A stretch of 64,000 bases of DNA from Eubacteriales bacterium. GTDB lineage: Bacteria > Bacillota > Clostridia > Oscillospirales > JAAYXM01. Below, in pieces: positions 1 to 61,753 of the stretch. The notes under the pieces were generated by a model, which ran no database searches, was not told the origin of the DNA, and saw only the letters and a program-made list of their open reading frames with translations. A program made the position numbers and the translations under genes. The stretch's first letter is position 1, and every line of letters begins with the position of its first letter. The stretch covers positions 1,268-65,267 of the forward strand of contig JAZOAI010000027.1 of the NCBI GenBank assembly GCA_045595365.1, written 5' to 3'.

Positions 1-1
1 T

Positions 2-1138
2 ATTGAATGTATAAAAGTAGTTGTTCAAGTTTTTGGGTTAGACAAAAACATTATAAAAAATATAGAGGACTCAACGGAGGTCTTTGGAACAAAATATAGT
101 GAGAGTGGAAGTGATTCAAAGTTTTTTGAATATATTCGCTCGCTATGTGGAGTGCACCCACTTTGCACAAGTTATCAAAAAGATTATTTAAATGGGAGTG
201 CATTTCATTGTTGCCCATTTGTAGCTTGGACGGATCGTGGTTACGTGAGTTCAAGAAAACATAACGGAGCAGATTTGATTGCAAATGTTTATACAACAAA
301 AAGCGATATTTCTATTGATATTGAACTTTATGTAAATGAATTTGAAACATATTTAAATAAATGGATAGAATGCATTCCGAACGTAATCGAAGCTAAAAAC
401 AAATATGTTGATGATAAACATAATGTATTTAGAAAGGAGCGAATGAAAAACTTATCTGATTTTAGAAATAATTATGTTGAATACATATCATATTTAAAAG
501 AGGAATATATCAAAAGACTTGATGATGCAAATGAATATATTCTAGATGAGTTTATTGAAATTTTCAAAATAAAACTTTCAAATAATGATAATCAGCGTAA
601 ATTAGATAAATATAAAAATGCAATATTGTATTCTTTAGGTTTTTTACATAGCAGTTTACAAACGATGACATTTGTTGGTTTTGAAAATACTGGCATAAAA
701 TATCCGGATAATTTTATAGAAACAGAACTTTATATTGAATTAGCATCGCCTACTCTCTATAATGGAGAGTTTGCAAAATGTTCATATGAAATAGGAAAAG
801 CATATAATTTATCATCAAATGGTAGTAGTAATGCATTTGATAAACACTATGCAAGAAGTTTATTGGAAAAACCAAAAGAATTAATTAACCAATACATACT
901 TTTTACTAATCAAGAGTCAAATGAAGAGGTGTATGTGCTGATTAAAGTTGCGTTATATCTTGAATCGCTAACAAGAAAAAGTATACTAAACAAGAATATT
1001 CCTAATGAAGAACAATATAGAGAAATTCTTTTGACAGAAACAGAAGTTGAGGAATTACATCAGGAAGAACCTGAAAAAGAAATCGAGACAATAGACTTAA
1101 GTATATTCAATGATATAATTAAAGAATACGGCGGCTGA
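2..1138 (+). CDS. Hypothetical protein, 5'-partial (element cargo); possible HEPN-like R-x5-H motif
   Basis: The track ORF 152..1138 starts at GTG, but I translated the same frame upstream and it stays open to position 2 (IECIKVVVQVFGLDKNIIKNIEDSTEVFGTKYSESGSDSKFFEYIRSLCGVHP...), so the gene probably starts left of the window. It is followed by hairpin terminators. I recognise no family. Confidence 0.6.
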   Translation: MECIKVVVQVFGLDKNIIKNIEDSTEVFGTKYSESGSDSKFFEYIRSLCGVHPLCTSYQKDYLNGSAFHCCPFVAWTDRGYVSSRKHNGADLIANVYTTKSDISIDIELYVNEFETYLNKWIECIPNVIEAKNKYVDDKHNVFRKERMKNLSDFRNNYVEYISYLKEEYIKRLDDANEYILDEFIEIFKIKLSNNDNQRKLDKYKNAILYSLGFLHSSLQTMTFVGFENTGIKYPDNFIETELYIELASPTLYNGEFAKCSYEIGKAYNLSSNGSSNAFDKHYARSLLEKPKELINQYILFTNQESNEEVYVLIKVALYLESLTRKSILNKNIPNEEQYREILLTETEVEELHQEEPEKEIETIDLSIFNDIIKEYGG

Positions 1139-1165
1139 CGAAAGTCAGTCGCTTTTGCATTTTAA

Positions 1166-1192
1166 ACGATCGGTTATGCCGGTCGTTTTTTT
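1166..1192 (+). terminator. Rho-independent terminator after the cargo ORF
   Basis: The stem acgatcgg/ccggtcgt (8 bp including one G-U) has a 5-nt loop and is followed by TTTTTTT. Confidence 0.7.
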
Positions 1193-1264
1193 GTGCTCAA
1201 AAGCCAGTTTGTACATTGTTATTTAAGTGAAAAGTAAAACATAAAATTATGAGAGGTGGTATTA

Positions 1265-1432
1265 ATGAATGAATTTGTGGTTGAACTCTTCGTAGCGAGC
1301 GATGATAAGCAAGATATAATGCTCTCAAGCTTAAATGAAGATGAAATGGAACAATGGAAAAAAGATATGGAGGCACGAGCGTTGAGCGAATACCATAACC
1401 AAAAAATTAAAATTAAGAGCAAAAAAATTTGA
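1265..1432 (+). CDS. Small acidic hypothetical protein (55 aa), immediately upstream of the recombinase; candidate recombination directionality factor
   Basis: ATG at 1265 is preceded by GAGAGGTGG. The translation is MNEFVVELFVASDDKQDIMLSSLNEDEMEQWKKDMEARALSEYHNQKIKIKSKKI. It falls below the 60-aa track cutoff. The antisense track ORF 1219..1422 has low-complexity composition. Confidence 0.4.
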   Translation: MNEFVVELFVASDDKQDIMLSSLNEDEMEQWKKDMEARALSEYHNQKIKIKSKKI

Positions 1433-1508
1433 TTTCAAAAAGCGGCATTGATACAATAATCGTATAGAATAAATAGTTGCCGTTTTTCAGGGAAGGAGGT
1501 TAAACAAA

Positions 1509-2957
1509 ATGAAAGTGGCGGCAGCTTACATACGAGTTTCTACTGATGATCAGCTTGAGTACAGTCCTGACAGTCAGTTGGAAAAAATAAAACTCTATGC
1601 GGAAAAAAATCAAATTTTATTGCCTGAAGAATTTATATTTGTAGATGAAGGCATCAGCGGAAGAAAAACAAAAAACAGACCTGCATTTAACGAAATGATA
1701 GGTTTGGCAAAATGCAATCCGAAACCATTTGACGTTATATTAGTTTGGAAATTCAGTCGATTTGCACGAAATCGTGAAGATAGCATTGTTTATAAATCTA
1801 TGCTCAGAAAAGAGCGTAATATTGATGTTGTTTCAGTTAGTGAGGATATAGGAGATGACAAATTATCTATCCTTATAGAAGCTATTATCGAAGCAATGGA
1901 CGAATTTTACAGTATTAACCTTGCCGAAGAAGTAAAACGAGGAATGACAGAAAAAGCAAAAAGAGGCGGTGTTCTTTCTATTCCCGGATTTGGTTATAAG
2001 GTTGAAAATGGTGAATATGTGATTGTTCCTGAAGAAGCAGAGATTATACGTAAAGTGTTTAATGACTATCTGAACAAAAAGGGATTTTTAACAATTGCAA
2101 AAGAACTGAATGCTATGGGAATAAAAACACATCGGAACTGTAAGATTGAGAACAGAACCATAGACTATTGGCTTCATAATATGTTGTACATAGGAAAAAT
2201 CTGTTGGAGTCCAAACGGTAAACGCTCAAGAAACTATAATTTGGAAGATATGATTATCAGCGATGGACATCACGAACCTATTATAGATATGGAAACATGG
2301 GATAAGACACAGGAAAGATTGGTTAAGCAAAAAGAAAAGTATGGTAAGTATTATAATTCTGATCGTAAAGATTTATCTCACTGGTTAACCGGAATATTAA
2401 GATGTGAGAAATGCGGAAAAGTATTGTCTTATCAGGGCGGATACTTCGGTTGTTCAGAGCGAAGCAGAGGAAAATGCGACGGAGTTGGATATATAAAAGC
2501 AGAAAAAATAGCTAATATCATTCTTAATATTTTATGCGAAATAGAACTACCAAATGTTGAACTGGAATTTGCTGATCCTAATTCTGTTAAGGAAGTAAAT
2601 ATCAACGATGACAGCAGGATAGTATCTGCACAAATTCAAAGACTTGAAATTCGTCTGGAACGAGTAAAGCTTGCTTATGAAGATGGTGTAGATACTCTTG
2701 AAGAGTACAAAGCAAAGAAAAAAGCTATCACGGATGAAATTGATAAGCTGAAAGAGATGCTTGAACAAACTCAAGAAGAAAACCCAAAAGAAGAAGTTAA
2801 GCTAAACAAAAAAGAGCTTCGCAGATTGACTGAAGTTTTGAAAGATGATGATGTAAGTAATATGGAAAAGAACAATATGGCAAGGACAATTTTTAAAGAA
2901 ATTATAAAAGGCGGAGATGGCGGAAAACGGCTTAAATGCGTGTTTTGGCGGCATTAG
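1509..2957 (+). CDS. Large serine recombinase (resolvase N-terminal domain, recombinase domain, zinc ribbon and coiled coil)
   Basis: The N-terminus AAYIRVSTDDQ...SPDSQ is the catalytic-serine motif. Also present are VWKFSRFARN, Cys pairs CEKCGK...CSERSRGKC and a C-terminal coiled coil. RBS GGAAGGAGG lies upstream. Confidence 0.9.
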   Translation: MKVAAAYIRVSTDDQLEYSPDSQLEKIKLYAEKNQILLPEEFIFVDEGISGRKTKNRPAFNEMIGLAKCNPKPFDVILVWKFSRFARNREDSIVYKSMLRKERNIDVVSVSEDIGDDKLSILIEAIIEAMDEFYSINLAEEVKRGMTEKAKRGGVLSIPGFGYKVENGEYVIVPEEAEIIRKVFNDYLNKKGFLTIAKELNAMGIKTHRNCKIENRTIDYWLHNMLYIGKICWSPNGKRSRNYNLEDMIISDGHHEPIIDMETWDKTQERLVKQKEKYGKYYNSDRKDLSHWLTGILRCEKCGKVLSYQGGYFGCSERSRGKCDGVGYIKAEKIANIILNILCEIELPNVELEFADPNSVKEVNINDDSRIVSAQIQRLEIRLERVKLAYEDGVDTLEEYKAKKKAITDEIDKLKEMLEQTQEENPKEEVKLNKKELRRLTEVLKDDDVSNMEKNNMARTIFKEIIKGGDGGKRLKCVFWRH

Positions 2958-2982
2958 CTAGGCTACTCAAACATTTGCAGTA

Positions 2983-3078
2983 CGCTCCACCAAGCTGGGT
3001 GATGATTATTTTTGCAGCTGCAGGATTCGGTTTTTTGATTTTTACAGGATACTGTAACTTTTTCTCATATATCCACAT
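2983..3078 (-). pseudogene. cotJC: cotJC 5' fragment (first ~32 codons), interrupted by the element
   Basis: ATG at 3078 lies 3 nt after the cotJB stop. The translation MWIYEKKLQYPVKIKKPNPAAAKIIITQLGGA matches the conserved CotJC N-terminus as I remember it (B. subtilis MWVYEKKLQYPVKV..NP.LAK..I.QYGGADGEL). After GGA the frame reads YCKCLSSLANAAKTRI-stop, antisense to the recombinase 3' end. Confidence 0.75.
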
Positions 3079-3081
3079 ACT

Positions 3082-3378
3082 TTAATTCTCCCCCTCCCAA
3101 GGCCACGGTCCTGATACCCAGTCCCATCTATTCTCATTTTTGTTGCCGTGCATCGTTATGGGGCCGATATTTGCCTCATGTTCTGCAATAAGCTTTTCCC
3201 TCTCGTTCTGAAGCTTTGAATAATATTTGAGCGCTTTTAAGTTGTTAGGGTGAGTATCTAAAAACAGAACCGTTTCAAATATTGCGAAATCATATTCTCT
3301 TATTTTTCGCATCAGATGGCTTTTTTGTGATGAATAATTTGCGTTTCTGCTCATATTGGAATTTGTTCTCATCCCCAT
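3082..3378 (-). CDS. cotJB: Spore coat protein CotJB
   Basis: The motif YDFAIFETVLFLDTHPNN...ALKYY...WPWE is typical of the CotJB family. The gene overlaps the cotJA stop. Confidence 0.85.
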   Translation of the reverse strand: MGMRTNSNMSRNANYSSQKSHLMRKIREYDFAIFETVLFLDTHPNNLKALKYYSKLQNEREKLIAEHEANIGPITMHGNKNENRWDWVSGPWPWEGEN

Positions 3379-3581
3379 ACATCCTCCCCGAAAAAAGGTT
3401 TGTCAAGATCCGGAAATTGCGTACCGCGGGAAAGCGCCTCGTGAGGCTCTTTGACATCTCTCCACATCTGCATGGGAGAATATATCATACCGACTACCAT
3501 TTCGCCGCAGGTGAGCTCGCCGATATTCTCATCATGGCAACTCTCATGCTCATAATGCGGTTTCATATATGGATTCTCCAT
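3369..3581 (-). CDS. cotJA: Spore coat-associated protein CotJA
   Basis: The CotJA-family core SPMQMW....EPHEAL..GTQFPDLDKPF is present, and the gene sits first in the cotJ operon. Confidence 0.75.
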   Translation of the reverse strand: MENPYMKPHYEHESCHDENIGELTCGEMVVGMIYSPMQMWRDVKEPHEALSRGTQFPDLDKPFFGEDVWG

Positions 3582-3663
3582 AGATTACCCGAGTCTCCTT
3601 TTATAGATTTTAAGGATTTTTTCCTTACAGCTTATCCTATGTATGTTATCGAAAACTTGTTAA

Positions 3664-3704
3664 TAAAAAAAGAAATATAGCAGGGGATCTCTCCTCTGCT
3701 ATAT
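3664..3704 (-). terminator. Terminator of the Ca2+-ATPase gene
   Basis: On the minus strand the stem atatagcag/ctgctatat starts 6 nt after the stop and is followed by a TTTCTTTTTTT tract. Confidence 0.6.
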
Positions 3705-3709
3705 GCGGA

Positions 3710-6370
3710 CTATTTCTTTTTTGAAATTCTGATAAACAGCTTGATTATCTCCTGAATCGGCATAATTGCGAGAGACAGCGCGATTGCGACTCCGTATTCC
3801 TGCACATCAAGCCGGGCAAGTTCAAATGCATTGGCGAGTACCGGAACTTCTATAACAAGAGTAACAAGAAGGAACGAGAGAACCGCCGCACCCCAGAGCC
3901 ATAAGTTCTGACTCTTCATTTTAAAGATTGAGCCTCGTAGCGAGCGAAGATTGAAGGAGTGGACAATCTCCCCTATCGCAAGAGTCAAAAACGCCATTGA
4001 GGTGCCGAGCGTATCTGCATCATACGGCAACGTGCCGAACTTTGCAATATGGTCGGGATAGAGAATATCGTGACCTATGAAGTAAGATGCAAGAGTTATT
4101 GCTGTGACAATGACTCCCTGATACACAACGGCAGCTCCCACGCCCCCGGAGAAGATTCCCTCGCTTGTCTTTCTAGGCTCTCTCGACATTATATCTCGCT
4201 CTGCTTTTTCCATACCGAGAGCAAGCGCGGGCAGACAGTCTGTTACAAGATTTATCCATAGAAGATGAACAGGCTTAAAGAGTGTAAAGCCAAAAAGCGT
4301 TGCAAAGAAAATCGACAGCACCTCGGAAAGGTTTGACGCGAGAAGAAACTGAATACATTTTCTTATGTTATCGTATATTCTTCTTCCTTCGCCTACCGCA
4401 GAAACGATTGTTGCAAAGTTGTCATCCGCGAGAACCATATCCGCAACATTCTTTGTGACATCCGTTCCGGTTATTCCCATACCCACGCCAATGTCGGCAT
4501 TTTTTATTGACGGAGCATCGTTTACGCCATCGCCCGTCATCGCCGTAATCTTGCCGAGCTTCTGCCACGCTTTTACGATTCTCGTTTTATGCTCGGGCTG
4601 AACTCTCGCATATACGGAGAAATTCTGAACGATTCTCTCAAACTCCTCTTCTGACAGTTTGGAAAGCTCAGCCCCCGTCATCGCTTCACTCGCATCTTTT
4701 ATAATCTGAAGCTCTCGTGCAATCGCAACAGCCGTATCTTTATGGTCTCCCGTTATCATTATGGGGCGTACTCCCGCTCGGCGACATTCTTCAATCGCGG
4801 ATTTGACTTCATCTCGAACGGGGTCAATCATTCCAACAAGCCCTATAAAGCAAAGGTCATTCTCAAGGTTTTCAGCATCATAACTATCAGGCACGGAGCT
4901 GTATTTTCTTTCCGCCGCGGCAAGAACGCGAAGAGCGCGGTCTGCCATATTTTTATTGTTTGTAAGTATATTCTCCTTTACACCTTCTGTCAAATCAACA
5001 ATCTTGCCGTCTACATACGCGCTCTTGCAACACTTCAGGATTTCATCGGGCGCGCCCTTTGTAAACTGGACAATGCCGTTATCAGCTTTGAAAACGACTG
5101 ACATCATCTTGCGTTCAGAGGAAAACGGAGCTTCACCGATTCGCGTATATTCCTTTACCATCTCGTTTTTATCAAGCCCGAGCGTGTATGCATAATCTAT
5201 CAGCGCACATTCTGTCGGCTCACCTTGAGCGCTTTTTGTTTCAGGGTCAAGCTCGGCATCGGAGGCAAGTGCCATCGCTTTTGCGAGTTGCGTCTCGTCT
5301 GTGCAGAAGTTTTCGACAACCGTCATCTTATTCTGCGTGAGTGTTCCTGTCTTATCGGAGCAGATTATCTGCGTGCAGCCGAGAGTCTCAACCGCGGTAA
5401 GTTTTCTTATAATCGCGTTTTGGCGGGACATATTCGTTACGCCTATTGAGAGAACGATTGTGACAACGGTTGCAAGCCCTTCGGGAATTGCCGCAACAGC
5501 GAGAGAAATTGCAATCATAAACGTATCGAGAAAGGTTTCAAGCACGAACGTTCCTTCAGAGATAACTGAGCGGATAATGTTTATTCCGAAAATTACAACA
5601 GATATAGCTATGACAAGCTTTGTCAGAACCCTTGAAAGCTCAGAAAGCTTCATCTGAAGAGGGGTTTTTCCGTCTTTTGCCTGAGTCAGAGCATCTGCGA
5701 TTTTACCCATTTCGGTATCCATCCCCGTTGCCGTAACCACCGCTTTACCGCGCCCATAAACGACAGAGCTGCCTGAGAAAACCATATTTTTTCTGTCTCC
5801 GAGCGAAACCTCGCCGCCCGAGAGAGCCTCTATGCCCTTTGTGACGGGGACCGACTCTCCTGTGAGCGCGGCTTCTTCGATCTTAAGGCTTGCACATTCG
5901 ATAAGCCTCGCATCTGCGGGGACTGCATCTCCCGCTTCAAGAATAATAATGTCGCCGACAACAAGCTCTTCACTCGGGATTATCATATAATGGCCGCCAC
6001 GGATTACTTTTGACGTCGCGGCGGACATCTCCTGAAGCGCGGCGATTGATTTTTCAGCCTTGCTCTCCTGAACAACACCGAGGACTGCGTTGATAATTAC
6101 AACCGCCATAATAATTATGACATCTGCCGGGAACTCATTTTCATAAACCGCCATTATTCCGGCAATCGCCGCGGCAATTATGAGAATGATTGTCATAGGC
6201 TCGGCAAGCTGCTTTAAAAAACGTTTTATTATGCCATCTCCCTTTTCTTCTCTGAGCTTGTTTCTTCCGTTTTTCAAGAGCCGCCGCGCAGCTTCTTTTC
6301 CGGAAAGCCCGTTTTCGGAAACCGAAAGCTCTTTCATTACCTCGCCATAATCCTTAACATATTCTTTCAT
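3710..6370 (-). CDS. Calcium-translocating P-type ATPase (PMCA/SERCA-type, YloB-like)
   Basis: 886 aa. It has the DKTGTLT phosphorylation motif, TGES, the TGDGVNDAP hinge, MITGD and about 10 TM segments. Confidence 0.9.
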   Translation of the reverse strand: MKEYVKDYGEVMKELSVSENGLSGKEAARRLLKNGRNKLREEKGDGIIKRFLKQLAEPMTIILIIAAAIAGIMAVYENEFPADVIIIMAVVIINAVLGVVQESKAEKSIAALQEMSAATSKVIRGGHYMIIPSEELVVGDIIILEAGDAVPADARLIECASLKIEEAALTGESVPVTKGIEALSGGEVSLGDRKNMVFSGSSVVYGRGKAVVTATGMDTEMGKIADALTQAKDGKTPLQMKLSELSRVLTKLVIAISVVIFGINIIRSVISEGTFVLETFLDTFMIAISLAVAAIPEGLATVVTIVLSIGVTNMSRQNAIIRKLTAVETLGCTQIICSDKTGTLTQNKMTVVENFCTDETQLAKAMALASDAELDPETKSAQGEPTECALIDYAYTLGLDKNEMVKEYTRIGEAPFSSERKMMSVVFKADNGIVQFTKGAPDEILKCCKSAYVDGKIVDLTEGVKENILTNNKNMADRALRVLAAAERKYSSVPDSYDAENLENDLCFIGLVGMIDPVRDEVKSAIEECRRAGVRPIMITGDHKDTAVAIARELQIIKDASEAMTGAELSKLSEEEFERIVQNFSVYARVQPEHKTRIVKAWQKLGKITAMTGDGVNDAPSIKNADIGVGMGITGTDVTKNVADMVLADDNFATIVSAVGEGRRIYDNIRKCIQFLLASNLSEVLSIFFATLFGFTLFKPVHLLWINLVTDCLPALALGMEKAERDIMSREPRKTSEGIFSGGVGAAVVYQGVIVTAITLASYFIGHDILYPDHIAKFGTLPYDADTLGTSMAFLTLAIGEIVHSFNLRSLRGSIFKMKSQNLWLWGAAVLSFLLVTLVIEVPVLANAFELARLDVQEYGVAIALSLAIMPIQEIIKLFIRISKKK

Positions 6371-7000: not shown

Positions 7001-7522
7001 TTACTTAATTTCAATAATTTTTATTTCACTCGGCAAAATACCTGTTTCGCTGACAACGATATCCTTTATTTTTGTTGTATCTGATGCCGACAACCCCTCC
7101 TCAGGTGCCGACACGATTATGTTTGCCCCTTTCCCGTTTATGAGGGCAACGCAGTCATTAAACCCCTTTGCTTTCACAAGCGTCTCTATGCGTGTTTCAG
7201 ATATTGCCCCTGTCGAAATTGTTTCAATGCTTGCGGCTGCGCGGTCTCGCGATTCCTGTGATAAGTTCTCTTCCTTTATAGACTCTTCAAGCGTTGTTAT
7301 CGCGCTGTCCCGCGCTTTTTGCTTTTCAAGGCGCGCCTCTGCAAAATATTTTTCTTCACTTTCCGTTTCCATCACTTCATTCGCACCACTGCCTTCATTT
7401 GTTCCGAGTGTGCTTTCCACACGAACACCGTCGTTCTCAAGCTCCGCCGTATTGAGGTTAAGATATACGGCAACACATATAAAAAGCACGATAATTGCGG
7501 CTACGGCACTCTTTCTCTTCAT
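7001..7522 (-). CDS. spoIIIAH: Stage III sporulation protein AH
   Basis: It has an N-terminal TM segment and an ARLEKQKARD segment, is the last gene of the spoIIIA operon, and has a C-terminal YscJ-like region. Confidence 0.8.
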   Translation of the reverse strand: MKRKSAVAAIIVLFICVAVYLNLNTAELENDGVRVESTLGTNEGSGANEVMETESEEKYFAEARLEKQKARDSAITTLEESIKEENLSQESRDRAAASIETISTGAISETRIETLVKAKGFNDCVALINGKGANIIVSAPEEGLSASDTTKIKDIVVSETGILPSEIKIIEIK

Positions 7523-7531
7523 GGTTTCCTC

Positions 7532-8059
7532 CTACTTTTTCATTTTTATTATGCTGATTTTGTCGCTTCCAAGCCCTGTAAGTGCTGAAACAGAAGCCAC
7601 AACCGAGCTTTGAACGTCTACTCTGTCTGCACCGTCGCAGATTACAACAGCTCCGCGAAATTCCGGGTAGATTTCCTTCACAACAAGCGGGCTTTCTCTC
7701 CCCGACCCTTCAGACACTATACTTGGCTTTATGTCACTGTCGCTCTCTAACATCACCCCGCTCTCGTTTTCCCTCGCACTTTTACGCGAATCTTTTTCAT
7801 AAACGTTTTCCGGGCCGGATTCCACCGACAAAATCACCTTGCATCTGCCGACCCCGTTACATTCGAAAAGACATTCTTCTATTCTTTTTTCAAAGCTCTT
7901 AAGCTCAAATTCGACAATGCTCCCGTCCTTTTCCTCTGCCTTCTTTTCTCCCTGCGGCAACACGAGCAGAAAGAGGCCTACTGCGATAACAACTGCTATG
8001 TATTTATATTTTTGCAGAAATTTGAAAATCCCCGGCAGTTTAAACATATCCTTGTTCAT
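7532..8059 (-). CDS. spoIIIAG: Stage III sporulation protein AG
   Basis: It has an N-terminal TM segment and the C-terminal motif PEFRGAVVICDGA, and its operon position fits. Confidence 0.85.
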   Translation of the reverse strand: MNKDMFKLPGIFKFLQKYKYIAVVIAVGLFLLVLPQGEKKAEEKDGSIVEFELKSFEKRIEECLFECNGVGRCKVILSVESGPENVYEKDSRKSARENESGVMLESDSDIKPSIVSEGSGRESPLVVKEIYPEFRGAVVICDGADRVDVQSSVVASVSALTGLGSDKISIIKMKK

Positions 8060-8524
8060 TTATTTTCCCTCAATTTTTACTTCCTGTTTTTCAGGAGAAA
8101 TTCCGAATTCTTCTTCCAAAACTGCACATACGCGCCCGGCCTCTTCGGCACTTTTTGAAATCACTGTCGCAGAGACAGGCATATCTCCATCAAGCTTTAC
8201 GGACACTTCGCAAGCATTGGCTTTCGCTTTATTCAATACATATGCCGAAAGCTTCTCCCCTATGATTTCATTTTCAATTTCTTCGAATTTTTCTGCCGAC
8301 GTTTCTATGCTTTTATTGATTTCATCTTCATATGCCCGACTCATTTCAAAGATATCCGATGAGGTTATCTTCTTAATCGGGGATATAAGCACGACAATGA
8401 GCATAACGCTGCCGAGCATTGAACAGACCCGTCCTGCGCTGTTTTTCGGAGCAAGGGAGGAGATTACCGACATTATGAGTGTCACTGCGGAGAGCGATGC
8501 AATCCAGAGTTTTATGCCTTCCAT
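8060..8524 (-). CDS. spoIIIAF: Stage III sporulation protein AF
   Basis: Operon position fits. I chose the start at MEGIKLWIASLS (ATG at 8524, RBS-like TGGGGG upstream) rather than the GTG at 8542, which lies inside spoIIIAE. Confidence 0.8.
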   Translation of the reverse strand: MEGIKLWIASLSAVTLIMSVISSLAPKNSAGRVCSMLGSVMLIVVLISPIKKITSSDIFEMSRAYEDEINKSIETSAEKFEEIENEIIGEKLSAYVLNKAKANACEVSVKLDGDMPVSATVISKSAEEAGRVCAVLEEEFGISPEKQEVKIEGK

Positions 8525-8525
8525 A

Positions 8526-9608
8526 TCACAAAACCCCCACACTTCTCATAGCTGCGATTACGGATATAAGAATGACGGTTGCGACAGACGCACACATTGC
8601 AAGCACAAGCCCGAAGCTTTCGGCAAGGCGCGAGGAGAGTTCCGCTATGCTCCCACCCACTACAGGGCTTGCTATGAGAGATGCTGCTTTAAACGTGAAA
8701 TAGTTTACGAGCATCGTGGCAAAGGGCGTTGCAAATGCCGAGAGAATCGCAAGCATTCCGAAAACACCGATTGCGTTTTTCATCATCGCCGCGCCTGCAA
8801 TCACGGTCTCTGCCGCTTCCGAAACTGCAGCTCCTACTATCGGCACCGTGCTTCCGAGAGCAAATTGAGCTGCCTTGAGCCCTGCCTTATCAGCGCCACC
8901 TGTCACAAGCCCCGATACACTTATGTAAGACACAAAGGCCCCTAGCAAAACCTTCAGCGCCACCGACACTATCTTAACTGAAAAATCCGAAATTTTTTGA
9001 AGCGCAAGGTTTTTCGCGGCGGCATTTGCAGTGGCAGCGAAAATATTTATATATACAAGCGGAAGCAAAACCGAGCTTATCAGAGTTATGAGGACATCCG
9101 AAAAGATAAGGGTTATGCCTGCCTTCGCCGCCGCAGCAGACGGAAGCCCGCACATAGCCTCTGCCGCCGCCACAGACGGAAGCAAAGCTTTTGAAAAAAG
9201 CTCAACCCCTGATATAAACTCACGCCCCATCCCTATTACACTGGTTATGCTGCCTGAAGCGGCCCCTGTGACAGCTATTGCGCCTACAAGCGAAAGCGCG
9301 CATCTTACGGAGCTGCTTTCCCCCGGAGTAAGCGTTTCGACCGAGCTACACAAAAATGACACAGCGCAGATTATCGCAACGCATTTAATTCCGCTTCCGA
9401 GAAGGGATGAGATGTTCTCTTTTATTTTTTCGAATATCCCGCCTATTCCGTCTGACAGTGAGATGTTCTGCTCAAATTTTATATCTGCGCCATCAGGCAC
9501 TGACTCTATAACGCGTGGAACTTCAAGCGCATCATAAAGCCTGTCCTCTGCCGAAGCCGCAGGGATAAGAATTATTGCAAGCATTAAAACACAAATAAAT
9601 TTTTTCAT
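8526..9608 (-). CDS. spoIIIAE: Stage III sporulation protein AE
   Basis: 360 aa with a signal peptide and a polytopic Gly/Ala-rich membrane protein. Operon position fits. Confidence 0.9.
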   Translation of the reverse strand: MKKFICVLMLAIILIPAASAEDRLYDALEVPRVIESVPDGADIKFEQNISLSDGIGGIFEKIKENISSLLGSGIKCVAIICAVSFLCSSVETLTPGESSSVRCALSLVGAIAVTGAASGSITSVIGMGREFISGVELFSKALLPSVAAAEAMCGLPSAAAAKAGITLIFSDVLITLISSVLLPLVYINIFAATANAAAKNLALQKISDFSVKIVSVALKVLLGAFVSYISVSGLVTGGADKAGLKAAQFALGSTVPIVGAAVSEAAETVIAGAAMMKNAIGVFGMLAILSAFATPFATMLVNYFTFKAASLIASPVVGGSIAELSSRLAESFGLVLAMCASVATVILISVIAAMRSVGVL

Positions 9609-9618
9609 TTGTTTTTCC

Positions 9619-9999
9619 TCACGATGTAATTTGTCCGAGAAGCCCGAACATTAGCGGAATGGCAAAGGATATTGCCACCGCACCACCCAAAAGCTCTATA
9701 TACGACGCCGCCGAAACAACTCCGCTTTCCCTGCACAAATCAGAGGAAAGCTTTGTTATAATGCTTATTCCGAGAGCCTTTATAAGCGGCGTGAGAAGAT
9801 TTTCTGAAAGCCCCGCATATTCTGCAAGCTCAAAAACAAGCTCTATAACCCGCCCGATTGCTCCGGCGGCGCAGAAAACGAGCGCACCAAGAAGGACAAG
9901 AGATGCTGCAACTGACATTTCAGTAAGTGTTCTGCGAAGCAGAACTACCGTGATCGCGCCCACAATTGAGAGCGCACAAACCTTAAGTACAACTTCCAT
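9619..9999 (-). CDS. spoIIIAD: Stage III sporulation protein AD
   Basis: A 126-aa 4-TM protein in the expected operon position. Confidence 0.85.
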   Translation of the reverse strand: MEVVLKVCALSIVGAITVVLLRRTLTEMSVAASLVLLGALVFCAAGAIGRVIELVFELAEYAGLSENLLTPLIKALGISIITKLSSDLCRESGVVSAASYIELLGGAVAISFAIPLMFGLLGQITS

Positions 10000-10008
10000 A
10001 GCCTTGTC

Positions 10009-10203
10009 TCAGAGTCCGAAGGTTGATTTAATAAGGTCGAACAAGTCGCTTATCTCCTCGATAATTATCATAAGCACAACTATTAACCCCGCAAGAGTCG
10101 TCATCATCGCCTGCTCCTCGCGCCCTGAGCGCACAAGCAGCTGATTTAAAACCGATACGAGAATCCCTATCGCAGCAACTTTAAAAATCAAATCAACCTG
10201 CAT
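10009..10203 (-). CDS. spoIIIAC: Stage III sporulation protein AC
   Basis: A 64-aa 2-TM protein with the motif VAAIGILVSVLNQLL. Confidence 0.85.
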   Translation of the reverse strand: MQVDLIFKVAAIGILVSVLNQLLVRSGREEQAMMTTLAGLIVVLMIIIEEISDLFDLIKSTFGL

Positions 10204-10223
10204 TTTTCACTTCTCCGCTTCCG

Positions 10224-10739
10224 CTAAATTAGAATTATAACAACTGCCATTCCGCTTATAAGCCCGAGCTTTGCATACAACTTTCCAAGGCGTCCTCTGT
10301 CATTTTCAGCCGCTTCCCAAAGCGAGCTTATTCGCCTTTGACTGTGAGAAATAGCATTTATCTGCTCCTCTGCACCGTACCTTCCGAGAACGCTCCCGAG
10401 TTCTTTTATAACATCTTTTTCATTTGATTTGAGCCTTAGATAGTCAGCACGCGACAAAGCCTTTGACCATATCAGAAAAAACGGAACATCAGGCTTTTTA
10501 TTTTTCTCTTCACAGCACTCTGAAAAAAAATTGCTGAGAGGGCTTGGGCTTTCATGGGAAAGCTTTTCCATAAGCTCGGAAATTGGCGTAAGCCTCCCCC
10601 CTATCTCTGAGCGCATTATGTCAAGTGCCGACAAAAAGCCTTCAAGAACGCGTGCGCGGACAGCAAGCTCACTTGATGCAAAGACCCCTATAATCGCAGC
10701 GCCTCCGACAAGTAAAATTGCGCCTATTATTTTTATCAT
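10224..10739 (-). CDS. spoIIIAB: Stage III sporulation protein AB
   Basis: 171 aa with TM segments at both ends. It overlaps the spoIIIAA stop. Confidence 0.8.
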   Translation of the reverse strand: MIKIIGAILLVGGAAIIGVFASSELAVRARVLEGFLSALDIMRSEIGGRLTPISELMEKLSHESPSPLSNFFSECCEEKNKKPDVPFFLIWSKALSRADYLRLKSNEKDVIKELGSVLGRYGAEEQINAISHSQRRISSLWEAAENDRGRLGKLYAKLGLISGMAVVIILI

Positions 10740-11659
10740 TGAGTCCCTTCCCCCTTTTTGACTTCTTCGACTTTGTATGTAAACTCTCCGTTTTCTTTTT
10801 TCAGAATGACGGCAATTTTAAAAGCGCTGCGCTCGTGCAAATCTCTATACACAGGTTTTGAAAACACATCTTCCACACTGTCGCCGTGGACTGTTGCAAG
10901 GATTCCGACCCCACAATTTAAAACCACGGATATGGCCGCAGCATCGTCCACTGCTGTTATTTCATCAAGCGCAATTATGTCCGGAGAGAGGCTTCTTAGC
11001 ATAAGAAGCGCCCCCTGTGCCTTATTTATGCCGTCTGAAACATCTGTGCATCGACCTACATCAAACTGTGGAACGCCCCGTCTTTTTGCCGCGACCTCTC
11101 CTCTCTCATCGACAAGAGAAATCCGAAACCCTTTATCAGAAAGCCGCCTCACGAGGTCACGAAGCATTGTTGTCTTTCCAAAACCCGGTGGCGATATTAT
11201 GACCGTATTTAAAAATGCTCCGTTTCTGATAACCTGCGGAAAAATATGCTCCGCCGCATGCTTTATCTCTCTCGCAATTCTTATGCAAACGGAAGACAGG
11301 TCACGCACGGTGAGGATGCCCGACGGTGTTTTCGCATACGTTCCGCAAAGCCCGATGCGATGGCCGCCCGAAACCGTTATATACCCTTCGCTTATGCTTG
11401 TCTGAACACTGTGAACCGACCCGCGCGATGCAAGCTCAAGAACGCTCTGAAGCTCCTCATTTCTTATCGGGCACTCTCCTCCGCAGAGAATTTCTTTTTC
11501 GTTTACGTATACTGACATATATCTCCCCACCCGAAGCCTGAACTCCGATGCCGCCGCTCTCTCTTCTTCGCAAAGCTGCATAGCCTCATTCCGCAAACGG
11601 GGTGGCAGATAGCTAACTGCCTGTCCGTATCTGGCAAGCATATCCTTTCTTTTTTCCAA
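10736..11659 (-). CDS. spoIIIAA: Stage III sporulation protein AA (ATPase)
   Basis: Walker A is ISPPGFGKTT and Walker B-like is IIALDEI. It is the first gene of the 8-gene operon. Confidence 0.9.
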   Translation of the reverse strand: MEKRKDMLARYGQAVSYLPPRLRNEAMQLCEEERAAASEFRLRVGRYMSVYVNEKEILCGGECPIRNEELQSVLELASRGSVHSVQTSISEGYITVSGGHRIGLCGTYAKTPSGILTVRDLSSVCIRIAREIKHAAEHIFPQVIRNGAFLNTVIISPPGFGKTTMLRDLVRRLSDKGFRISLVDERGEVAAKRRGVPQFDVGRCTDVSDGINKAQGALLMLRSLSPDIIALDEITAVDDAAAISVVLNCGVGILATVHGDSVEDVFSKPVYRDLHERSAFKIAVILKKENGEFTYKVEEVKKGEGTQ

Positions 11660-57904: not shown

Positions 57905-57981
57905 TGGCGCGCTGTGGAGAATTCGAATCCCCGACCTTGTGGTCCGTAGCCACACGCTCTATCCAGCTGAGCTAACAGCGC
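57905..57981 (-). tRNA. tRNA-Arg (anticodon ACG), CCA encoded
   Basis: The minus strand reads gcgctgt-ta-gctcagctggatagagc-g-tgtgg-ctACGga-ccaca-aggtc-ggggattcgaattctcc-acagcgc-g-cca, which folds by hand into a cloverleaf. Confidence 0.9.
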
Positions 57982-61022: not shown

Positions 61023-61039
61023 GTTTTTGTCACAAAAAG

Positions 61040-61139
61040 GCAGAGTAGGAAATATCGGGCCAGTGCCGTGCGAACGGGGAGTTGTCGCACAGACGAATTG
61101 CGCAAGCTGCGCTACCGTGGTATTTCCGCATCCCGCTGC
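61040..61139 (+). promoter_or_regulatory. THF (tetrahydrofolate, folT-motif) riboswitch aptamer
   Basis: GCAGAGTAGG...GCGAACGGGGAGTTGTCGCACAGACGAA...CCGCATCCCGCTGC matches the recalled THF-I consensus (AGAGUAG, GAAUGGGAUGUCG..CAC..ACGAAG, GCAUCCGCU). P1 pairs gcag with ctgc. It lies directly upstream of folT. Confidence 0.85.
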
Positions 61140-61204
61140 TCTTAACCTCAGCTTGCTGTCCTCTTTGTGGTCAAAATTTTCAACTCACAAGGAGGACTAT
61201 AATA

Positions 61205-61753
61205 ATGTCAAACCGCATAAAATCTTCAGCAAGAGAGCTGAAAAACACCCGCTCTCTCGTCACCTGCGCTGTCCTTATAGCGTTGTATGTAATCGCAGAT
61301 GTTTTTCTCACATTCAAAACTGATGCATTTGAGATCACCACTTCTTTCCTCGCGCTTGCGCTCATAGGTTATTTCTTCGGTCCGGTTCCCGGTTTTATTT
61401 CTGCAATCGTCGGTGACCTCGTCGCATATATTTTTCGCCCTGCAGGCCCGTTTTATCCGGGTTTTACACTTTCTGCAATTTTAATCTGCGTTATCTTCGC
61501 CTTCTTTTTTTACGAAAAAAAGGTTACCCTCTGGCGCATTATTCTGGCAAGGAGCATAATAAACATATTTGTCAATATAGGCCTTGGCACACTCTGGATT
61601 TCCCATCTCTATGGCAAGGCATATATTCCTCTTCTGATTTCGCGCGCTGCCAAAAACATAATTGCACTTCCCTTTGAAATTTTGCTTTTATACCTTCTTC
61701 TTAAGAATATCGAAAAAATAATGAAGCATACCGGCGGCAAGAGCCGCATATAG
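61205..61753 (+). CDS. folT: Folate family ECF transporter S component
   Basis: ATG at 61205 follows AAGGAGG. It is a ~180-aa 6-TM protein controlled by a THF riboswitch. The track ORF start at 61082 lies inside the riboswitch. Confidence 0.8.
   Translation: MSNRIKSSARELKNTRSLVTCAVLIALYVIADVFLTFKTDAFEITTSFLALALIGYFFGPVPGFISAIVGDLVAYIFRPAGPFYPGFTLSAILICVIFAFFFYEKKVTLWRIILARSIINIFVNIGLGTLWISHLYGKAYIPLLISRAAKNIIALPFEILLLYLLLKNIEKIMKHTGGKSRI

Follow-up and report, generated by a model that had tools for sequence, protein, structure and literature searches.

In the 64-kb stretch of Eubacteriales contig JAZOAI010000027.1 analysed here (the window), the coat protein gene cotJC, which directly follows cotJA and cotJB, is interrupted at codon 31 by an insertion that lies inside the coding sequence of this sporulation gene. 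We propose that an integrative element, horizontally mobile and not phage-like, has its right-hand end at positions 1-2986, is located in cotJC and is developmentally excised; taken as a whole, we regard this statement as slightly favoured by the evidence. Its structural part alone, namely that a site-specific element carrying a large serine recombinase (LSR) is integrated in cotJC and would be excisable in frame, is very probably correct, judging from comparisons with related loci. In particular, these comparisons strongly support the predicted integration at the conserved GG in codon 31, a site that falls in the motif Q-(Y/L)-G-G|P-D-G-E-L encoded by the third gene of the cotJABC operon, and they likewise strongly support a geometry in which precise excision would be possible and would restore full-length CotJC. 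Developmental excision is plausible by analogy with the skin and SPbeta elements.

The cotJ operon occupies the minus strand of the window. A sequence-only reading that preceded this work had described cotJA (3369-3581) and cotJB (3082-3378) as intact, and this was confirmed by matches to the Pfam families CotJA (E=1.5e-11) and CotJB (E=6e-28); the two genes overlap. An ATG at 3078, three bases past the cotJB stop, opens cotJC with the N-terminus MWIYEKKLQYPVKIKKPNPAAAKIIITQLGGA..., and the remaining 5′ fragment (2987-3078) comprises codons 1-30 and two bases of codon 31. As the same reading had recognized, this is a CotJC N-terminus: the piece matched the first 33 of the 284 positions in the Pfam Mn_catalase profile (E=2.8e-8) and was identical to the N-terminus encoded at two comparison loci, L067 and L069, described below. 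The host DNA ends with the GG of codon 31 (bases 2988-2987), and the element begins at 2986. The break is therefore where it had been placed, except that the alanine codon GCG, which had been counted as the last codon of the match, belongs to the element. The called cotJC open reading frame (ORF) continues through element DNA for 17 foreign codons and stops at 2932. The previously noted shift to AT-rich DNA was evident from the G+C content, which was 0.32 for positions 1-2986 and 0.47 for the rest of the window. The gene for the 482-aa LSR (1509-2957, plus strand) points at the junction, as had also been proposed, and its stop codon lies 26-30 bp inside the boundary.

The window was compared with loci from other genomes and contigs, numbered L001 to L078. 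More than 120 homologues of the LSR, with identities of 74-98%, were found in gut metagenomes and in metagenome-assembled genomes (MAGs) labelled Clostridia, Oscillospiraceae or Ruminococcaceae. A scan limited to one genome per species yielded 58 loci with an LSR of this clade at 38-98% identity. A cotJC piece lay within 300 bp of the LSR stop in 49 of these 58 loci and within 3 kb in three more (52/58); six loci had no cotJC piece, three of which have less than 120 bp of flanking sequence. Among the 49 loci, 34 carried a 5′ piece that was convergent with the LSR gene, as in the window, and 15 carried a 3′ piece in the same orientation as the LSR gene. Wherever the 5′ side was visible, cotJB or both cotJA and cotJB preceded the interrupted gene, which is therefore the cotJC of the operon and not an unrelated catalase gene. 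Near-identical LSRs showed the same order of LSR stop, short arm, cotJC 5′ piece, cotJB and sometimes cotJA in wholly different neighbourhoods, with nagA/nagB in L001, pheST in L003, a fructose phosphotransferase system operon in L078, and a P-type ATPase gene and the spoIIIA operon in the window. A chimeric MAG assembly at the junction was also considered and was rejected, because the same junction occurs in more than 50 independent assemblies.

Both junctions of the element were visible in several loci, in which the inserts measured about 9.6 kb (L010), 3.65 kb (L020), about 2.6 kb (L057), about 3.5 kb (L047) and about 4 kb (L059 and L060). The 5′ junction of L010 reads …CAGTACGGCGG|TGCGTACTGCAAATGTTTGAGTAG…, and its 3′ junction reads …CTACTCAAACATTTGGTGTACGGTGG|ACCGGACGGCGAACTT…. 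When the host halves of L010 and L020 were joined at the GG, they gave …QYGG|PDGEL… in frame and a full-length Mn-catalase/CotJC protein. The joined proteins (193 aa for L010 and 189 aa for L020) each showed one unbroken Mn_catalase match over residues 1-182/183, with E-values of 1e-52 to 1e-57, and aligned across the join, without gaps, to a solved structure of the Mn-catalase family. Both cotJC halves were also present in L047, L057, L059 and L060, and all 12 of the 3′ halves seen at full length (12/12) were free of stop codons. The earlier structural reading, an LSR element inside cotJC, is thus upheld by loci in which intact halves join in frame. The 3′ half that it expected at the far end was found in those relatives with both ends visible; in the genome of the window, this end lies beyond the contig. 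The closest host relatives found, L067 and L069, have CotJB proteins 66-69% identical to that of the window and represent the empty site at codon 31: from an N-terminus identical to that of the window, their CotJC continues …ITQLGGPDGELNA… (…QLGGPDGELNA…). These orthologues, which are uninterrupted at this point, therefore read on through GGPDGEL, as comparison with such genes had been expected to show, and they place PDGEL after the break where the sequence-only reading had anticipated DGEL.

Alignment of the junctions in the related loci, a step that had been suggested earlier, defined the attachment (att) core as inverted-repeat arms around a central GG. The reconstructed attP is CATTTG-GTGTACGGT-GG-TGCGTACTG-CAAATG; it is symmetric about the GG, and the element ends are inverted repeats of each other. 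The attL and attR sites have only GG(N)GG in common and share no long direct repeats. Serine integrases typically use short att sites of imperfect symmetry. The GG, which occupies 2987-2988 (minus strand) in the window and supplies the first two bases of codon 31, is the presumed crossover dinucleotide, because no other dinucleotide at the dyad centre of attP is common to attL and attR. The adjoining element-side arm P′, (A)GCGTACTGCAAATGTTTGAGTAG, spans 2963-2986 (minus strand). More than 25 loci have this arm at their junction in identical or nearly identical form, and its inverted repeat, CTACTCAAACATTTGGTGTAC, forms the far-end arm in L010, L017 and L062. An alternative crossover point at the CG located two bases further along would yield ...GGADGEL, the version found in Bacillus subtilis; it was rejected, since the resulting attP would be strongly asymmetric and the nearest relatives encode GGPDGEL.

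Some loci deviated from this arrangement. The module was inserted in the opposite orientation in 15 loci (L017, L024, L038, L040, L045, L052, L054, L055 and others), in which the LSR gene lies beside the 3′ half and is co-oriented with it. The 'GGTGTAC'-type arm keeps to the side of the 3′ half in these loci, which implies that the att site was flipped relative to the recombinase gene during the evolution of the family. In L062 (10580-10640), a truncated LSR gene is followed by the cotJC-like sequence GGGCCGGATGGCAAC, which is flanked by both att arms at a spacing of about 20 bp, and in L030 (3790-3840), cotJC-like CAATACGGCGG and then an arm of the window type come right after an LSR gene whose product is 57% identical; these odd sites may be tandem or decayed elements.

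Elements of different hosts are homologous at the nucleotide level from about 1128-1131 up to the junction, with an identity of about 95% for the closest relatives, and the content left of about 1128 differs between elements as variable cargo. On this alignment, the conserved core is a 1.85-kb module composed of two terminators, a gene for a 55-aa acidic protein, the LSR gene and a 24-bp att arm. Two tandem terminator-like hairpins (1130-1153 and 1164-1188, plus strand) form the left edge of the module and are conserved in the element alignment. The small protein (1265-1432, plus strand; isoelectric point 5.0) is encoded directly upstream of the LSR in 25 loci, with 42-97% identity, and its gene is kept even in the minimal 3.65-kb element L020. 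Its predicted fold is beta-beta-alpha-beta (single-sequence AlphaFold model, pLDDT 79). The motif CATAAAAT (1240-1247, plus strand) lies 3 nt before the strong ribosome-binding site GAGAGGTGG (1251-1259) of this gene; across 23 diverged elements, the motif hardly changes except, for the most part, at position 5 (A, T or C). We take it to resemble the -10 sequence (CATA...) of the sigmaE/sigmaK type, and it may be a candidate -10 element for a mother-cell sigma factor. The spacer between the small gene and the LSR gene (1433-1508) is more conserved across 23 elements than the flanking coding sequence, and a match to a sigma-70-like promoter, TTGATT-17-TACAAT with an upstream TG, was found before the LSR gene at 1429-1457 (plus strand).

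The recombinase itself showed the Pfam domains Resolvase (PF00239, residues 4-154, E=3.4e-29), Recombinase (PF07508, residues 174-271, E=3.2e-23) and Zn_ribbon_recom (PF13408, residues 292-340, E=2.4e-6), with the motif AAYIRVSTDDQ at residues 5-15, and it matched the PHROG 95 integrase with an E-value of 2.5e-105. With all three defining features present, and with a length of 482 aa that far exceeds the ~200 aa of a resolvase, it is a member of the LSR family, as first described. Its matches to the NCBIfam families CcrB and CcrC (SCCmec recombinases) and XisF were below the family cut-offs (131.6 bits against 900 for CcrB and 88 bits against 375 for XisF).

In the window, the cargo is represented by the C-terminal ~379 codons of the gene for a protein of ~467 aa (2-1138, plus strand); frame 2 is open from base 2, and the start lies left of the window. 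The encoded protein was 94% identical to the 467-aa protein P0165 and had 60 homologues of about 465 aa, none of which carried a Pfam domain; no PADLOC or PHROGs match was found for it either. L078, from a different host, has the same cargo gene in front of the same module. Elsewhere, the cargo included a GmrSD-type restriction enzyme (L001), a pair of DUF3990 and helix-turn-helix (HTH) proteins, tyrosine integrases and, in L010, a RelA/SpoT-like protein with AAA proteins. The DUF3990 protein (~225 aa) and its HTH_3 partner (~213 aa) recur as a cargo pair in L001 (2791-4090), L010 (7479-8775) and L020 (7979-9284) and could be a toxin-antitoxin-like or regulatory pair. Genes for phage structure, packaging or lysis were absent from the 3 kb in the window, from L020 (3.65 kb), from L010 (9.6 kb) and from the 10 kb upstream in L003. 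Several related contigs (L001, L005 and L078) also break inside the element.

Viral contigs and one complete phage genome of 32 kb carried more distant relatives of the LSR, with 43-48% identity. The best LSR match in the phage record collection was 43% identical, and that phage had no obvious cotJC-like attP beside its integrase gene; the relatives in IMG/VR (45-48%) carried no cotJC fragments. A dyad-symmetric attP-like site was present at 11427-11487 of the 38-kb viral contig L074 (IMG/VR UViG_3300045988_094968), 60 bp after a gene for a 46%-identical LSR. This site, AAATCATATCTT…CAGTTAGGCGGTC…AAGATATGATTT, contains CAGTTAGGCGG, a mimic of the cotJC core, and the resemblance suggests that the wider clade probably includes phages with the same attB.

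We envisage the following mechanism. If the two junctions recombined at the GG, the element would be removed precisely and cotJC rebuilt. In the present genome, the far-end junction would be expected to consist of the arm …ACTCAAACATTTGGTGTACGGYGG abutting CCNGAYGGNGAR…, followed by a cotJC 3′ half of ~158 codons. By analogy, we regard the 55-aa acidic protein as the candidate recombination directionality factor (RDF), because it is small, acidic, tightly linked to the LSR and kept in otherwise stripped elements, a profile that agrees with published descriptions of CD1234, SprB and Skr. The LSR would be made constitutively, and expression of the small protein would trigger excision, as in SPbeta (SprA/SprB) and in the skin element of Clostridioides difficile, skinCd (CD1231/CD1234); the separate signals, sigma-70-like for the LSR gene and CATA-type for the small gene, fit this logic of a constitutive integrase and a regulated RDF. 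Sporulation in the mother cell would be one trigger: cotJC would be rebuilt in a terminally differentiating cell, and the spore would keep the element. The conserved small acidic protein and the CATA-type motif are weak hints of such developmental excision. Expression of cotJ in the mother cell under sigma-E is known in B. subtilis and is assumed for this host. A motif upstream of cotJA, CATACATA (window 3582-3709, at about 3642-3649, minus strand), presumably resembles the sigma-E -10 consensus and would fit mother-cell expression of the operon. The window also contains the spoIIIAA-AH operon (7001-11659, minus strand) near the cotJ operon, with a P-type cation ATPase gene (3710-6370) between them, and the host, a bacterium of the gut Clostridia, is therefore genetically an endospore former.

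Several observations weigh against developmental excision of this element. The contig, only 65.6 kb long, extends at most 1.6 kb to the left of the window, and the left end of the element and the cotJC 3′ half of this genome lie outside the window and cannot be seen. At only 3 nt from the ribosome-binding site, the CATA-type motif, a putative sigmaE/sigmaK signal, is tightly placed for a -10 box. The small protein had no usable match among PDB structures (Foldseek, best E 0.44), belonged to no Pfam, PHROGs or PADLOC family and showed no detectable similarity to a known RDF. The predicted attP (CATTTGGTGTACGGYGGWGCGTAC) gave zero exact matches in viral contigs and JGI metagenome contigs, a result that is uninformative because excised circles are a minor species and an exact match was required. 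B. subtilis cotJC mutants have mild phenotypes, so permanent inactivation of the gene may be tolerated. LSR identity and host CotJB identity were uncorrelated (r=0.05, 528 locus pairs), and locus pairs with LSRs at least 93% identical had a median CotJB identity of 38%. This lack of co-divergence indicates that the element moves, or recently moved, horizontally between distantly related spore formers. The module was about 95% identical in hosts whose CotJB proteins are only about 38% identical, and the host flank of the window aligned to no other locus outside ~130 bp of cotJC itself. These comparisons show that it is an actively spreading mobile element and not a lineage-bound domesticated relic. 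Such mobility fits a dual life like that of SPbeta just as well as the simple inactivation, by insertion, of a coat gene that is dispensable. The latter amounts to a purely selfish insertion in which the conserved GGPDGEL stretch serves as a landing pad (attB), cotJC is permanently knocked out and excision serves only vegetative transfer. We consider this a real possibility that falls somewhat short of probable. It would account for near-identical modules in very distant hosts without co-divergence, for cargo typical of mobile or defence islands (GmrSD, DUF3990 with HTH, tyrosine integrases, RelA/SpoT-like with AAA proteins), for a viral contig (L074) with a related LSR and a cotJC-mimicking attP-like site, and for the presence of the element in both orientations (34 against 15 loci); a second, unrelated LSR family in the same gene at codon ~62, described below, is also expected if the gene tolerates disruption. 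It accounts less readily for the state of the 3′ halves, none of which is decayed among the 12 seen at full length, although their intactness is only a weak sign of selection because the insertions may be recent. It also sits uneasily with the minimal elements of 2.6-3.7 kb, which keep the small ORF and the LSR gene and have no transfer functions, and with the fact that sporulation brings about the excision of every characterised LSR element in a mother-cell sporulation gene (PMC4191935, PMC10747680). One reading need not rule out the other, since SPbeta does both.

The element could also be a dead relic that is no longer excisable in this genome, with cotJC reduced to a pseudogene, for example by deletion of its 3′ half, and its function covered by a Mn-catalase paralogue elsewhere. 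The left end is beyond inspection, and no 3′ cotJC piece was found in the 61 kb to the right; a tblastn search, in which a B. subtilis CotJC query served as a probe only, detected no second or 3′ cotJC piece in the 64-kb window. Decayed relatives exist, such as L062 with its truncated LSR gene, and Clostridia often have several CotJC-like genes, as in C. difficile (PMC11222575). What is visible here does not look decayed: the LSR gene, the small ORF and the visible cargo ORF all remain open and share 94-98% identity with their counterparts elsewhere, the att arm agrees perfectly with the consensus of the family, and cotJA, cotJB and the cotJC 5′ piece are intact. We therefore regard a relic as quite improbable, all visible parts being intact and close to the family consensus, and retain as our preferred reading a mobile element that is excised during development.

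A second insertion hot spot in cotJC was observed at codon ~62, within TD(I/V)GT|EE, in L067 (6301-6516), L069 (6304-6537) and L044 (11470-11589 and 14723-15115). L067 and L069 are intact at codon 31 and broken at codon ~62. The insert in L044 measures 3.1 kb and carries a gene for a different LSR of 496 aa together with a nucleoside phosphorylase gene; it leaves cotJC in three pieces. A cotJC piece also ends at aa 62-68 in L026, L032, L035, L042, L047, L049, L059 and L060, where the gene is probably in three pieces as well. Our broadest suggestion, which we consider doubtful, is that cotJC of gut Clostridia is a multi-site 'assembly gene' with targets at codons ~31 (GG|PDGEL) and ~62 (DxGT|EE) for two unrelated serine-recombinase element families in dozens of species, so that two independent programmed excisions in the mother cell would be needed for a functional coat catalase. 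If true, the arrangement would have its counterpart in cyanobacterial heterocysts, with their multiple nif/hup/fdx elements, except that the elements of cotJC still spread horizontally.

As regards the surroundings of the operon, L069 shares with the window the SpoIIIAH, ATPase and cotJ neighbourhood. Further away in the window, the ORF at 61082-61753 is preceded by a tetrahydrofolate (THF) riboswitch (61039-61140, plus strand; 71 bits), and a gene for tRNA-Arg(ACG) lies at 57905-57981 (minus strand).

Intervening elements in sporulation genes are the textbook example of how mobile DNA can serve as a developmental switch, and to our knowledge, nearly all of the studied examples come from Bacillus and a few pathogenic clostridia. 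The present comparison reveals no new principle; it places one LSR clade at a single cotJC codon in at least 50 species, mostly uncultured gut Clostridia. It yields a defined att core together with a minimal recombination module of two genes, and it clearly demonstrates horizontal spread. For annotation, it means that cotJC will be miscalled as a pseudogene or missing in many MAGs, and that contigs tend to break inside the element. For engineering, a compact serine integrase with a candidate RDF and an att set is available for a naturally conserved landing site. A 43%-identical LSR was also found in a cultured type strain, Negativibacillus massiliensis Marseille-P3213T (L058; NZ_FTRU01000008.1, 1317812-1339215), 2.2 kb from a cotJC 3′ half (7314-7814, minus strand), with the 5′ half more than 10 kb away. 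This strain is a possible experimental system, and as a cultured carrier, it could be used to test excision.

The sequence-only reading had left open whether an element residing in cotJC had been described before; such interruptions have already been reported in silico. Interruptions of cotJC were listed by Abe et al. 2013, as cited in bioRxiv 10.1101/2021.11.22.469490, and a skin-like element interrupts cotJC of Laceyella sacchari (Galperin and colleagues, bioRxiv 10.1101/2022.02.25.481979). These earlier cases are in silico listings from Bacilli in which the same gene is interrupted by a skin-like or a phage- or transposon-related element. The C. difficile phage phi027 integrates beside a CotJC-like gene and not inside it. 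In the literature searched, we found no experimental study of any cotJC element and no description of the gut Clostridia clade, the GG core, the module, the two orientations or the codon ~62 site. Thus, cotJC was already known as a target in silico, and the breadth of the clade, the att site, the two-gene module and the second site are added here.

Excision during sporulation is known for skin, SPbeta, vfbin, vrin, gin and yin (PMC4191935, PMC10747680) and is a defining trait of this class of sporulation-gene intervening elements; the element described here would work in the way its members do. It also resembles the heterocyst-specific fdxN element of cyanobacteria, whose serine recombinase XisF restores a gene in a terminally differentiated cell, as we propose here. 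The phylum and the developmental programme differ, and the present LSR is not an XisF orthologue, since its weak NCBIfam match (E=6e-25, 88 bits) is far below the family cut-off of 375. The likeness to skin (CD1231 and CD1234 in sigK of C. difficile; SpoIVCA/Skr in B. subtilis) is closer: both are LSR elements inside a mother-cell sporulation gene, with the recombinase gene by one junction, a small acidic RDF or candidate RDF, and an excision, predicted here, that restores the reading frame. The known RDF CD1234 is similar in size and charge to the 55-aa protein (PMC10747680). In contrast to the coat protein gene interrupted here, the target of skin encodes a sigma factor, and the LSRs are not closely related; skin is largely strain- or lineage-bound and its excision has been shown, whereas the present element, known from sequence, moves between distant hosts. 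SPbeta (SprA/SprB in spsM of B. subtilis) is likewise mobile and targets a late spore-surface gene, and we propose that the element shares its logic of an LSR with its own promoter and a separately controlled small RDF. SPbeta is, however, a functional phage of 134 kb, while the present elements range from 2.6 to more than 10 kb, with no phage structural genes seen, and the small protein has no similarity to SprB. The gin element differs in target gene, host clade and recombinase, and its excision during sporulation has been shown experimentally. Small, not phage-like and consisting essentially of recombination functions, gin is the known element closest in size and content to the one described here.

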